A stretch of DNA of 58,704 bases from Acidobacteriota bacterium (GTDB lineage: Bacteria > Acidobacteriota > Terriglobia > Bryobacterales > Bryobacteraceae). Position numbers and translations under genes: made by a program. The DNA is taken from positions 41,583 through 100,286 of the forward strand of contig JBBIVT010000003.1 of the NCBI GenBank assembly GCA_037439565.1. The letters run 5' to 3'. The notes below the pieces were generated by a model, which did not search any database, was not told the DNA's origin, and worked only from the letters and a program-made list of their open reading frames with translations. Positions 2,476-58,704 of this stretch are shown here, one piece after another; position 1 is the first letter of the stretch, and every line of letters starts with the position of its first letter.

Positions 2476-3050
2476 TGCCGGCGAATGCCATCGCATGCGC
2501 CGTCTGTTCCTCTCCGGTTGCGGCGGAAAACTGGAACCGGGAGGAGGCCTCGCGTTGCCCCGGCTGCGGCCGGGACGTCAGAGCCCTCGTGTTTCCCGCC
2601 CTCCGTCACGACCGCTCCGGCGAGTCCCCGGCTGCGCTCGAGGGCGAATCCGAAGCCAGTTGCTACTACCATCCGCAGAACCGCGCCGCGCGCGTTTGCG
2701 AAGATTGCGGACGCTTCCTGTGCCAGCTTTGCGATCTGGATGTCGACGGTCGCCACCTCTGCCCGCGCTGCTTCGACAAAACGGAGGTTCTGGAAACCAG
2801 CCGGCCGATGTACGACACCATGGCTCTGGCTCTCGCCACTTTCCCCGCGCTGTTGTTCTGGCCCGCGTTCCTCGGCGCGCCGTGGGCTCTGACGATGGTC
2901 ATTCGCCGCTGGAACGCCCCTTCTTCCCTGGTCCCACGCACGAAAATCCGCTTCATCCTGGCGGCCCTGTTCGCAGTGGCCGAGATCGGCTTCGGGATTT
3001 TCGTCATCTATATGTTCACGAGCGTGAGTCTGAAAGGGCCGCGGCGCTGA
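2475..3050 (+). CDS. Zinc-ribbon plus B-box-like zinc-finger membrane protein
   Basis: The ATG overlaps the upstream TAA (TAATG). CAVC-x16-CPGC ribbon, then C-x2-H-x8-C-x2-C-x4-C-x2-C-x9-C-x2-C (CYYHPQNRAARVCEDCGRFLCQLCDLDVDGRHLCPRC). Three predicted TM helices lie in the C-terminal half. Confidence 0.65.
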   Translation: MPANAIACAVCSSPVAAENWNREEASRCPGCGRDVRALVFPALRHDRSGESPAALEGESEASCYYHPQNRAARVCEDCGRFLCQLCDLDVDGRHLCPRCFDKTEVLETSRPMYDTMALALATFPALLFWPAFLGAPWALTMVIRRWNAPSSLVPRTKIRFILAALFAVAEIGFGIFVIYMFTSVSLKGPRR

Positions 3051-3063
3051 CTGGCCTCTGAAC

Positions 3064-4020
3064 ATGGCCCGTTCCATTTATACGAAGCTCACCGGCCGAT
3101 ACCGAAGCCTGGCTGGCTTCACCCAGCTCTGGCTTGCGCCGGACCACCTGATGCTGCTCCAATCCTCGCGCTTTTCCGAGCAGTATAAGCGCTTTGCATT
3201 TTCCGATATTCAGTCCATCGTGGTGACGGAACTCCCGCCGCGCACTGTTGCCCGGTCGGCGATAATCCTCGCCGCGTTGGCGTGGATGGGTCTCTGGTTC
3301 GCGCTGGAGGCGAGGTGGGCAAAATGGGCGATCGAGCTCAGTGGGGTGCTGGCGCTGCTGATTCCCATTGCCGATATCGCGCGAGGACCGCGCTGCCGCT
3401 GCGTGCTCCACACGCGGGTCAGCCGGGAGCCGCTCGAACCCGTGTCGCGGATCCGCATCGCGCGCAAGTGTTTGGCCGAAATCCGTCCCAGAATCGAAGC
3501 GGTGCAGGGCGTGTTGCCGCCCACGCTCGAGCCGTTCCCGCAGGCGCCTTCCGTGACAGAAACGCCGCCTCCGGAAACACCCTCTCCGCCCGGTTACCTG
3601 CCGGAAATCGTGTTTGGGCTTTTTCTGGCCAACGCCTTAATGATCTGGGCCCTGATGCGATTCCCTCAGATGACCGATCTTTCTGGAGTCCTTGTCAATA
3701 CGATATTCGCGGAAATGCTGTTGATCGTGGTGGCGTTCCTTCGCCGCAAGGGCCGCGACCCGCGTGTGATCGTCTACGCGGTGATGGCGCTGGGTATCCT
3801 GGGTATTGCCTACGGCTTTTATGAACTGGCGCGGGAACTGAGTGGCTGGTATATGACGGTACTCGAAAAGGCGCGGAATAACGATCGTTCGATCACGCCC
3901 TTGACGATCTTTGCGAGCGGGGATCGGGCACAGTGGATGACGGTAGCGTGGCGTGCCGCCGCCGGCGTGATCGGGCTCGGGGCGGCATTCTACGAGCGGC
4001 GGAGCAAATGGCCCCGGTGA
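3064..4020 (+). CDS. Hypothetical polytopic membrane protein
   Basis: 318-aa ORF, 13 nt after the previous stop. Several hydrophobic helices and a Pro-rich linker (TETPPPETPSPPGY). I recognised no family. Confidence 0.6.
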   Translation: MARSIYTKLTGRYRSLAGFTQLWLAPDHLMLLQSSRFSEQYKRFAFSDIQSIVVTELPPRTVARSAIILAALAWMGLWFALEARWAKWAIELSGVLALLIPIADIARGPRCRCVLHTRVSREPLEPVSRIRIARKCLAEIRPRIEAVQGVLPPTLEPFPQAPSVTETPPPETPSPPGYLPEIVFGLFLANALMIWALMRFPQMTDLSGVLVNTIFAEMLLIVVAFLRRKGRDPRVIVYAVMALGILGIAYGFYELARELSGWYMTVLEKARNNDRSITPLTIFASGDRAQWMTVAWRAAAGVIGLGAAFYERRSKWPR

Positions 4021-54538: not shown

Positions 54539-57007
<2,469 letters not shown>

Positions 57008-57036
57008 CAAGCCCCGCGACGCGCGGGCGAAAAGCG

Positions 57037-57070
57037 CAGCCCCGGCCCGTAAGGGCGGGGATAACCCTCG
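57037..57070 (+). repeat. Copy 1 of a 34-nt GC hairpin motif (M1), 30 nt after the permease stop
   Basis: cagccccggcccgtaagggcggggataaccctcg. ccccggccc/gggcgggg form an 8-bp stem with one bulge, closed by a GTAA (GNRA-type) loop. The motif recurs at 57270 and 57621. Confidence 0.8.
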
Positions 57071-57088
57071 CCCCGCCCCCCGAAAGGG

Positions 57089-57303
57089 ACGGCCTGAATC
57101 GAGCTCGCATTTTGGGTCAAGAAGAAATTCCTCGCCTGGCCGGGCACCCGCGCCCACCAGCAGTCGCGGCTCCAGGACCGGCCGCGCTTGTCCGTTTCCT
57201 GACGGTCACGATTCTGAACCGCCATGCGTCAGCATGCGGACACCTCATCCGGCCCACGCCGGGGAAGCACAGCCCCGGCCCGTAAGGGCGGGGATAACCC
57301 TCG
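57089..57303 (+). repeat. Tandem non-coding repeat, unit 1 (215 nt)
   Basis: Shares these blocks with unit 2: a 16/16 block acggcctgaatcgagc, a 47/49 block ctgacggtcacgattctgaaccgccatgcgtcagcatgcggacacctca, and a 53/56 block ending in the M1 hairpin. Confidence 0.85.
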
Positions 57304-57450
57304 GCCCGCTGGAGTGGTCCACGAAAACTCAGAAAATCCAGTCAGGATTAGCGCATAGCCCGATGCACATCCCGAGCAGTTCGCAAACATCGGGATCACG
57401 GCACTGACGCTGGACCTGCGCGCAAGCCAACAGAATTGAGCACGAAAAGC

Positions 57451-57654
57451 ACGGCCTGAATCGAGCGCCCGCGCCCGATCCGCCCCACCGCCGAGGCGCG
57501 CCCGCCAGCAGCCGCGGCTCCAGGGGCCCTGCTTGCCCGCTCTGACGGTCGCGATTCTGAAACGCCATGCGTCAGCATGCGGACACCTCACGCTCCCATC
57601 CGGCCCACGCCGGGGAAGCGCAGCCCCGGCCCGTAAGGGCGGGGATAACACCCG
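57451..57654 (+). repeat. Tandem non-coding repeat, unit 2 (204 nt)
   Basis: Same three conserved blocks as unit 1, at offsets of +362, +343 and +351 nt. The units differ by indels, including an 8-nt insertion (cgctccca) after cacctca. Confidence 0.85.
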
Positions 57655-57762
57655 CGAATCGCCCGTCGATCGCGTCCGTAACCCGCCCGCCGACCACCCC
57701 AACTCCCGGCCCATCAGCCATTTTCCACTCTCACCCACCACCGCCCCGCTCCCCCGCGTGCG

Positions 57763-58431
57763 ATGACCAAGCAGAGAGGAACCTCAATGTCACCATCCGA
57801 GCCGACCACCCGAGCCGACGTCAACCGCGCCAACGCCCAGCACTCGACGGGCCCTAAATCGGAAGAGGGCAAGCGCCGCTCCGCCCTCAACGCCCTCCGC
57901 CACGGCCTCACCGGCCAGATCGTCGTCATGCCCAGCGAGGATCTCGCCGCCTACCAGCGCCACGTCCAGAACTTCGTCGACGAATATCAGCCCGCCGGAG
58001 CCACCGAAGCCCAGCTCGTCCAATCGCTCGCCGACGCCTCTTGGCGCTTAAACCGCATCGCCGCGTTAGAGGCCAACGTCCTCGCCCTCTCCGTCCAGGG
58101 CAGTGACGAAATCCAGGGAGCCATGGCCATCGCCGCAGCTTTTGCCCATCAGTCCAAAGCCCTTGCCAATCTGAGCCTGCATACCCAGCGCCTCTCGCGC
58201 CAGTTCGAACGCACCGTCGCCCAGCTCCGCGAGCTCCAGCACATCCGCCATGCCAAAGAAGAACAGGAGATGGAATATCTCCTCAACATCCTCGAAGCCC
58301 ACGAGCGAAACGGTGAACCATACGACCCCTCCGAAGATGGCTTCGTTTTTTCAGAAACCCAAATCCACCAGGCCAGGCAAGCCAGAAACCGCAGCAACCA
58401 ATCCTATGAAGCCTTGCGCGCGCAAGGTTAA
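57763..58431 (+). CDS. Conserved hypothetical protein, no recognisable domain
   Basis: 222-aa ORF with a second in-frame ATG at 57787. N-terminal [31 protein letters not shown], then a helical region. Coding-like composition. Confidence 0.55.
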
Positions 58432-58704
58432 CCAACCGCCTTCTTCAGGAGCGCGCGGATCCTTTCCTCGTCGTCGCCGGTCAACTTCTTCAGCGCAAAG
58501 GCGGCCGGCCACATCGTTCCTTCGTCGAGGTTCGCTTTGTCGCTGAAGCCCAGCGTCGCGTATCTGGCTTTGAACTTGTCCGCGCTCTGGAAGAAGCAGA
58601 CAACCTTGCCGTCCTTGGCGTACGCGGGCATTCCGTACCAGGTTCTCGGCGAGAGGGCTGGCGCGCTGGCTTTGATAAGGGCATGGAGCCGCTCGGCCAT
58701 GGCG
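58428..58704 (-). CDS. DUF1801 (YdhG-like) domain protein, probably 5'-truncated by the window edge
   Basis: [50 protein letters not shown] matches the YdhG/DUF1801 pattern. Family members usually have 15-20 more N-terminal residues, and the frame is open to the window end. Confidence 0.65.

Follow-up and report, generated by a model that had tools for sequence, protein, structure and literature searches.

RAYT-like genes (RAYT, tyrosine transposase associated with repetitive extragenic palindromes, REPs) that lie between long terminal inverted repeats (TIRs), known as 'TIRtrons' or 'TIRYTs', include a sharply delimited group from the Acidobacteria (Di Nocera, De Gregorio and Rocco 2013, PMC3733652). 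The published acidobacterial TIRtrons come from Terriglobus, Koribacter, Acidobacterium and Granulicella, with tsa392, aba1552/3447, acp645 and gma794 as the named TIRYTs, and such TIRs can make up repeat families of moderate abundance as well; in a REP, one end of the palindrome carries an unpaired motif, the GTAG or CGTC tag (PMC3733652). Here we describe a locus from a member of the Bryobacteraceae, the 755-nt gap between a permease gene and the next open reading frame (ORF) in a 58.7-kb stretch of DNA (62% G+C), which is called the window below. The gap is probably a cluster of small non-coding dispersed palindromic repeats, built like a bacterial interspersed mosaic element (BIME) from at least three Bryobacteraceae modules, and not a dedicated regulatory RNA. 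In relatives, one of these modules, T, brackets a small gene for a Y1 transposase.

Repeat modules in the gap

The gap runs from the TAG stop codon of the permease gene (57005-57007) to the ORF at 57763/57787, and is the largest non-coding stretch of the window. It holds the following modules, the first of which, a hairpin, begins 30 nt 3' of the stop codon:

57037-57070, + strand: module H copy 0, hairpin B only, with the exact 29-mer common to the other two copies
57081-57176, + strand: module M2 copy 1 (D5 57081-57104, 44-nt linker, D3 57149-57176)
57189-57242, + strand: module T copy 1, the 49-nt block plus its left end (nhmmer E = 3.9e-14)
57219-57239, + strand: short right-arm hairpin of T copy 1, CCG-C-CATGC GTCA GCATG CGG
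57246-57339, + strand: module H copy 1, full length (hairpin A 57249-57262, hairpin B 57273-57293, tail CCTCGGCCCGCTGGAGTGGTCCACGAAAACTCAGAAAATCC)
57340-57442, + strand: spacer S, at single-copy depth in metagenome runs X5 and X1, with copy 2 of a 12-mer at 57341-57352
57443-57524, + strand: module M2 copy 2 (D5 57443-57466, 30-nt linker, D3 57497-57524)
57534-57585, + strand: module T copy 2 (nhmmer E = 1.1e-13)
57562-57582, + strand: short hairpin of T copy 2
57597-57654, + strand: module H copy 2, without the tail (hairpin A 57600-57613, hairpin B 57624-57644)

At the level of aligned blocks, the repeats are these:

57013-57070, 57246-57303 and 57597-57654, + strand: 58-nt hairpin block (79% identity, reference copy and 95% identity, respectively)
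57199-57247 and 57542-57590, + strand: 49-nt block, 47/49 identical
57149-57176 and 57497-57524, + strand: 28-nt block (D3), 93% identical
57081-57104 and 57443-57466, + strand: 24-nt block (D5), 92% identical
57089-57104 and 57451-57466, + strand: 16-nt block ACGGCCTGAATCGAGC, 16/16 identical
56997-57008 (across the permease stop) and 57341-57352, + strand: 12-mer GTCAGGATTAGC, exact, offset 344

The module order M2-T-H is present twice, with a solo H hairpin ahead and a unique spacer between both sets, and four blocks repeat in the same order with inter-copy offsets of 343-362 nt. The two units are 77% identical overall and 92-96% identical in the blocks, whereas the linker between D5 and D3 is unrelated between them (41% identity; 44 nt in unit 1, 30 nt in unit 2), which is not the uniform divergence of a simple duplication. 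The exact 29-mer of the hairpin (57037-57065, 57270-57298 and 57621-57649) was observed three times, against 0.00 expected from 100 shuffles. The original prediction, made from the letters of the window alone, had described three shared blocks and a third copy of the hairpin, and both descriptions hold, with 16/16, 47/49 (49-nt block) and 95% identity (58-nt hairpin block) for the blocks and the exact 29-mer at 57037-57065 for the third copy. It was also correct in that indels break the reading frames. Unit 2 carries an 8-nt insertion between block 2 and the hairpin block, and together with the unequal linkers such indels between the units disrupt every frame of this non-coding region. The longest ORFs of the gap gave no Pfam match, and on these two grounds a coding potential of the gap was rejected.

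Modules T, H and M2 are absent from the rest of the 58.7-kb window. The search for further copies that had been suggested with the original prediction found each module with other flanks in metagenomes, including the source metagenome, and in relatives. For this we used run X1, the metagenome that contains the window at 100% identity (contig depth ~16-21 over unique parts of the locus), and runs X5 and X6, from a soil metagenome in which a close relative is present (unique-sequence depth ~27); copy-equivalents are rough values from summed contig depth, and the depths can mix several organisms. Among the modules, H has the highest abundance in the window's own community; hairpin B reaches a depth of ~342 vs ~16 in X1 (~20-fold), where contigs leave into other sequence on both sides of it. 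In X5 and X6, hairpin B and a 40-nt tail have sharp ends (57269/70 and 57336/7) and a depth of ~390 vs ~27 (~14-fold), and five long contigs with differing flanks carry the H unit, either internally or at one end. The T core stands at a depth of ~99 vs ~16 for unique sequence in X1, with other flanks on both sides, which corresponds to ~6 copy-equivalents; the same run holds a third, more diverged copy spanning the 28-nt and 49-nt blocks, as well as one more variant junction that leads into the hairpin block. The stretch 57461-57524 of M2 has ~3x the unique depth in X5 and other flanks in X4, indicating ~3 copies. In X5, H is joined directly to M2 and also to other points, and at one joint the H tail stands directly before D5-like sequence that runs on into the linker of M2 copy 1.

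In H copy 0, hairpin B reads CCCC-G-GCCC GTAA GGGC GGGG (57040-57060), with 8 bp and one bulged G. Hairpin B and the short T hairpin are built alike: each is 21 nt long and pairs over 8 bp, with a single base bulging from the 5' arm and a GTNA tetraloop. Two other Bryobacterales genomes (loci L003 and L005) contain an identical hairpin B, which was the search pattern, in the gap after a gene. In both, hairpin A precedes hairpin B and differs in sequence yet is self-complementary, and in L005 the pair lies 7 nt 3' of the stop codon. The non-Bryobacterales matches to hairpin B (L001, L002, L004 and L006) have only ~21-26 nt in common with it and were taken as chance or convergence; in L001, L002 and L006 the TAA of the hairpin loop may end the upstream reading frame. 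A homology of hairpin B with T-type TIRs was also considered, because of 9 nt (CCGTAAGGG) common with the variant TIR of locus L030, and is not claimed, the lead being weak.

Spacer S has a lower GC content (58% over 57338-57442) and is 95-97% identical in two mine-drainage metagenomes and one soil metagenome, in which the neighbouring genes are 92-98% identical. We rejected it as a specially conserved RNA, as it is no better conserved than these genes and RNA fragments are sporadic.

Module T and a Y1 transposase gene in relatives

When the 23-nt core of the 49-nt block was used to scan JGI metagenome contigs, six sites emerged, all of them intergenic and with unrelated flanks. When aligned, these sites define a T element with sharp ends, TGTCCGC-TCCC-TGACG-GTC-GCGGTTC-(loop of 3-12 nt)-GAACCGC-CATG-CGTCA-GCAT-GCGGACA. 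The full element of ~55-65 nt has three helices and two internal loops, and its left and right arms are inverted copies of one another. Extra T copies outside the 23-mer selection were found by nhmmer (L010 5892-5934, L005 7315-7348 and L026 3343-3382). The right arm occurs alone at L015, L026 and L005, and L012 retains a diverged left arm. Taken together, T and H hairpins occur between genes at L003, L005 and L010-L015, and on other contigs of X1 and X5. Scans of IMG/VR with the T core and with hairpin B gave no matches.

The hairpins of each unit had originally been described as mutually exclusive. The pairings are present, but we read them as helices of a multi-arm DNA palindrome, in which the ctgacg/cgtcag pair is the middle helix of T and the 'competing' CCG-C-CATGC GTCA GCATG CGG is a fold inside the right arm. 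The T copy beside the Y1 gene at L019 folds as DNA into one three-helix hairpin (-22.7 kcal/mol, z = -5.45), and 0/200 shuffles were as stable. In the window, copy 1 (TGTCCGT-TTCC-TGACG-GTC-ACGATT-CTG-AACCGC-CATG-CGTCA-GCAT-GCGGACA) and copy 2 (TGCCCGC-TC-TGACG-GTC-GCGATT-CTG-AAACGC-CATG-CGTCA-GCAT-GCGGACA) have fold z-scores of -1.7 and -0.7, and their inner and outer helices contain mismatches. The window T copies are decayed, with most of the long stem lost and the short right-arm hairpin kept, and this suggests that they are old and inactive.

One of the six scan sites, L014, carries a gene fragment with a match to Pfam Y1_Tnp, and T overlaps its stop codon. A protein search with this fragment returned 304 small proteins of ~110-135 aa, nearly all PF01797, many of which carry the JGI label 'REP element-mobilizing transposase RayT'. 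Five of the 304 were examined together with their flanks:

P0121 (100% to the query fragment), L016-18: full T at the stop codon; inverted copy upstream, 27-nt perfect inverted repeat (L016)
P0124 (85%), L019-25: full T at the stop codon; the inverted copy upstream is the same left-arm copy as in L016, with 2 mismatches
P0122 (81%), L026-28: right arm only at the stop codon; inverted copy upstream, 32-nt perfect inverted repeat (L026)
P0136 (71%), L029: left arm and diverged right half at the stop codon; inverted copy upstream, 17-nt perfect inverted repeat
P0222 (59%), L030: variant end, related by eye; related variant GTGACCGTAAGGGAGCGGTACA upstream, with no perfect repeat of 10 nt or more

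The T arms are the TIRs around a small Y1/HUH gene in four related lineages (L016, L019, L026 and L029). The loci L019-25, L026-28 and L029 were reached via the protein and not via the DNA pattern, and are therefore independent of the 23-mer scan. The right arm of T in L016-L028 (27-28 nt) is 100% identical to window positions 57215/6-57242/3, and that of T copy 2 is 27/28 identical to the copies beside Y1 genes. The resemblance to REPs or to miniature inverted-repeat transposable elements (MITEs) that the original prediction offered is upheld, since the modules recur in other contexts and the family of the 49-nt block flanks a Y1 gene in relatives.

The genes for P0121 and P0124, from two species, share their neighbours (two outer-membrane barrel genes upstream, thiolase downstream), and the contigs of P0121 all show one locus, likewise those of P0124. 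The Y1 gene is apparently fixed and single-copy, unlike multi-copy insertion sequences (IS). The solo T copies L010, L011 and L013 and the Y1 locus L027 come from one metagenome, Ga0210394; further T copies are present in L005, L012, L015 and the window. The full-length Y1 protein passes Pfam PF01797 (39 bits vs a cut-off of 23), and falls below the NCBIfam cut-offs for RAYT (NF047646, 27-30 bits vs 80) and for IS200 TnpA (NF033573, 31-37 bits vs 55). A remnant of a Y1 gene between both T copies of the window was searched for and rejected, as none was found. No X1 or X5 contig could be placed on the L014 Y1 fragment at 80% likeness, a search so insensitive that the identical 28-nt T core was missed too.

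The Y1 genes are annotated too short. They occupy L016 9791-10339, L019 9791-10342, L026 5175-5675 and L029 ~2840-3333, and the conserved coding sequence (..YFITFSCYG..HNVPGTR..) reaches ~50 codons upstream of the annotated ATG. ATA-GCC is conserved at all four of these loci where the 59% homologue at L030 has ATG, so that ATA may be the start codon. An in-frame TGA is present in L016 and L019 where L026 has TGG, and an in-frame ATG lies 13 codons upstream of this TGA.

Two of the loci with T copies hold further repeats. At L005 (7270-7390), three short hairpins of the form CCGCCATGC-(ATC/GTCA)-GCATGCGG stand in tandem and adjoin a minus-strand tRNA gene; T-runs follow two of the three, and the T-type right arm there resembles an intrinsic terminator. 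At L015 (~150-270 and 1-60, minus-strand view), the T right arm stands between direct copies of another repeat, ~60 nt long and with GGGCTGTCCCC/GGGGACAGCC palindromes in it, which makes this locus another mosaic of repeat families. The L015 sequence GGGGACAG fits the GGGGWSAS motif boxed in TIRs by Di Nocera et al. (PMC3733652).

Origin of the array and rival explanations

The array can be accounted for as fairly ordinary selfish repeat DNA, with H and M2 as putative further repeat families of the same kind as T. By analogy with IS608 TnpA and the E. coli TnpA-REP (RAYT), a Y1 enzyme would bind the imperfect, bulged hairpin on single-stranded DNA, and would excise and re-insert, or copy, the non-autonomous elements in trans. 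New copies would tend to insert beside earlier ones, and a local duplication or recombination could then have doubled the M2-T-H set to give the two-fold array. An effect on the permease transcript, for example by a 3'-end hairpin that slows exonucleases, would be a by-product.

Several observations weigh against this origin from dispersed repeats. No transposase was found linked to H or M2, no Y1 gene lies in the 58.7-kb window (the link between T and Y1 being seen in relatives), and no insertion polymorphism was demonstrated for the modules. The copy number is low for a REP family (~6 copy-equivalents for T, ~14-20 for H), and the whole JGI collection holds only six exact matches to the T core. 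All copies of T, H and M2 in the window lie on the + strand, with no alternation as in BIMEs or REPIN pairs. A role in the 3' untranslated region (3'-UTR) of the permease transcript may also exist, given one metatranscriptome fragment over 57246-57406.

The features on either side of the repeats are as follows:

54539-57007, + strand: MacB/FtsX-type (ADOP-like) permease gene, 822 aa (Pfam MacB_PCD 8e-42, FtsX 4e-28)
57655-57786, + strand: conserved leader of the ORF family; the same ~130 nt precede homologous ORFs at L007 and L009, in unrelated contexts
57787-58431, + strand: ORF without a recognised domain, 214 aa from the ATG at 57787 (ribosome-binding site AGAGGAA), 222 aa from 57763

The downstream ORF has no Pfam domain and 3695 homologues at E ≤ 1e-3, with Bryobacteraceae names. 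Its depth is 10-15x in X1 and 15-30x in X5, and that of the leader is 5-8x the unique level in X1. The contigs of close homologues end 76-592 nt upstream of the gene, in a different context each time. The ORF and its ~130-nt leader (57655-58431) form a multi-copy unit, and may be a mobile or selfish gene family of Bryobacteraceae; at L009 (~230-330), tandem GGGGACGGACGCGAG-like units lie upstream of a multi-copy homologue. Within the permease gene, the stretches 55413-55569 and 56669-56825 have 7-30x the unique depth in X1, X5 and X2, with many contigs leaving into other sequence there; they are conserved FtsX transmembrane segments common to many permease paralogues. Exact-sequence look-ups of the permease and downstream ORF proteins of the window returned no record.

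The repeats could be thought to form a structured regulatory RNA, either a stabiliser or terminator in the 3'-UTR of the permease mRNA or a switch or small RNA working through alternative hairpins, an explanation we find quite improbable. It draws on the GC-rich hairpins, one with a GNRA-like GTAA loop, on the alternative pairings present in the sequence, on the closeness of the first hairpin to the permease stop (30 nt) and, at L005, on the H-like hairpin pair 7 nt after a stop codon and the T-runs after short T-type hairpins. A metatranscriptome of the same study contains one 186-nt contig, from a close relative, over 57246-57406, for which DNA carry-over is possible; however, the RNA fragments of this relative are thin and sporadic over the whole 20 kb, with no enrichment at the repeats. 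Rfam cmscan of 56500-58704 gave no matches at E ≤ 1, and a scan of 56800-57900 detected no terminator-like (hairpin plus T-run) or promoter-like site in the gap, the sole terminator-like site lying inside the permease gene, in a count no higher than in shuffles. Folded as RNA, neither strand of 57240-57460 is stabler than shuffled sequence (z = -1.25 and +0.38), and the long stem is lost in the window T copies. Around the Y1 genes, both orientations of the conserved right arm have the same DNA sequence, as would suit a DNA site recognised by a protein. The covariation analysis originally proposed for the hairpins gave one compensated pair, in hairpin A, a result matched or exceeded in 210/500 shuffles and not significant; as only four sequences were available, it neither supports nor refutes RNA structure. 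With the Rfam null, the missing hairpin-plus-T-run, the shuffle-like folds and this covariation result, the riboregulator, terminator or switch of the original prediction is not sustained.

It is also unlikely that the region was simply duplicated in tandem on the spot, or that it is a scar of recombination between paralogous permease loci. Here a ~345-nt segment starting in the last permease codons would have been duplicated once and would have drifted, with its units nowhere else. The same block order is indeed found twice at regular offsets, the stop-spanning 12-mer recurs in register (344 nt), and all modules are in direct orientation and, within the window, present only here. Nevertheless, copies of each module are found next to different flanks in the source metagenome and in relatives, the unrelated linker next to well conserved blocks would require non-uniform drift, and the X5 relative appears to hold both unit types, so that a duplication would be old. 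The 12-mer is present and spans the stop as had been predicted, with its start at 56997 instead of 56998 and an offset of 344 instead of 343. Similarity around it extends on neither side, and the reading frame 5' of the second copy (...WSGPRKLRKSSQD*, by direct reading) is unlike the permease C-terminus; we therefore rejected the second copy as a relic of the permease 3' end. Its origin could be chance, as ~0.1 exact 12-mer pairs are expected in 1.7 kb by our own estimate, and another, unrelated exact 12-mer pair was found in the same region. Of the predicted in-register duplication with the last codons of the gene, the repeated module order remains, but the modules are dispersed elsewhere, the linkers are unrelated and the 12-mer has no extension. 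A duplication step may nonetheless have helped to build the array. It is very improbable, finally, that the gap serves in its entirety as promoter or leader for the ORF at 57763/57787, with the repeats as part of the mobile unit of that multi-copy gene. The ORF and ~130 nt upstream of it are multi-copy, and the contigs of its close homologues break 76-592 nt upstream, but similarity with L007 and L009 begins only at ~57655; further upstream both differ and are without T, H and M2 (the L008 contig has only 76 nt upstream), so that the leader is separate from the repeat units. In X1, moreover, other leader copies are preceded by different sequence. The original idea of a leader for the ORF at 57763 can be kept for ~57655-57786, conserved with the ORF family, and the two repeat units lie outside it.

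For the repeats and the Y1 gene themselves, a different status is possible but doubtful, namely that T and the Y1 gene represent a domesticated 'TIRtron' lineage of Bryobacteraceae, hitherto undescribed, on which selection acts at the host level and which is not merely selfish. The right arm is identical across L016-L028, where the Y1 proteins are 81-100% to the query and the flanking genes differ, and the 71% homologue (L029) keeps only the left arm. The Y1 gene appears to be throttled by the conserved non-canonical ATA start and, in two species, by the in-frame TGA. If T and its gene were domesticated, the arrays would be sites of enzyme action for the cell (single-stranded DNA processing, genome structuring), and a dedicated Y1 enzyme would exist for an untagged palindrome class. 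Taken as a cluster of dispersed palindromic repeats, the gap opens no new biological question. It does explain the largest non-coding stretch of the window as repeat DNA, averting its annotation as a riboswitch or small RNA, and it shows why metagenome assemblies of such organisms break at these sites. One palindrome is tied to one small Y1 transposase family in Bryobacteraceae, in which REP-type elements are little described, and this gives a concrete candidate pair of enzyme and substrate.

Comparison with known systems

Among described systems, the acidobacterial TIRtrons share with T a small Y1/HUH gene within perfect inverted repeats (17-32 nt), a host from the Acidobacteria and the lack of an unpaired GTAG tag. 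The TIRs also form a low-to-moderate-copy intergenic family in the same organisms (Ga0210394). T differs in that it comes from Bryobacteraceae and lacks the boxed GGGGWSAS TIR motif, and the window copies are decayed solo repeats stacked with two further modules. The likeness is one of arrangement.

The REP/REPIN-RAYT systems of Enterobacteria and Pseudomonas (Nunvar 2010, PMC2817692; Bertels and Rainey 2011, PMC3116915; Ton-Hoang 2012, PMC3333891) likewise consist of short imperfect GC-rich extragenic palindromes with a bulge, found in unrelated contexts. The full T, as an inverted pair of arms that forms a hairpin, resembles a REPIN, the clusters of several module types resemble those of REPs and BIMEs, and as in REP/RAYT pairs, T copies flank in inverted orientation an apparently single-copy Y1 gene in a fixed position (four lineages). 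In contrast to REPs, which typically exceed 100 per genome, the modules reach tens of copies at most; there is no GTAG next to the stems, and the CGTC in T is paired with GACG in the middle helix. The window modules all have one orientation, unlike REPINs and unlike BIMEs, whose REPs alternate in orientation with conserved linker motifs between them; only the mosaic of modules is common with BIMEs, and the Y1 protein scores 30 bits vs the NCBIfam RAYT cut-off of 80.

With IS200/IS605 elements and palindrome-associated transposable elements (PATEs), the array shares a transposase of the Y1_Tnp fold, subterminal imperfect hairpins as likely recognition sites, and non-autonomous derivatives that consist of hairpins only. 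However, the Y1 gene is in a fixed syntenic position in two species, unlike a multi-copy IS, its protein scores 37 bits vs the NCBIfam IS200 cut-off of 55, and the Y1 locus ends in true inverted repeats, which IS200/IS605 elements lack. The array and the pairing of T with a Y1 gene belong to a known type, that of REP/TIR repeats with a Y1 transposase.

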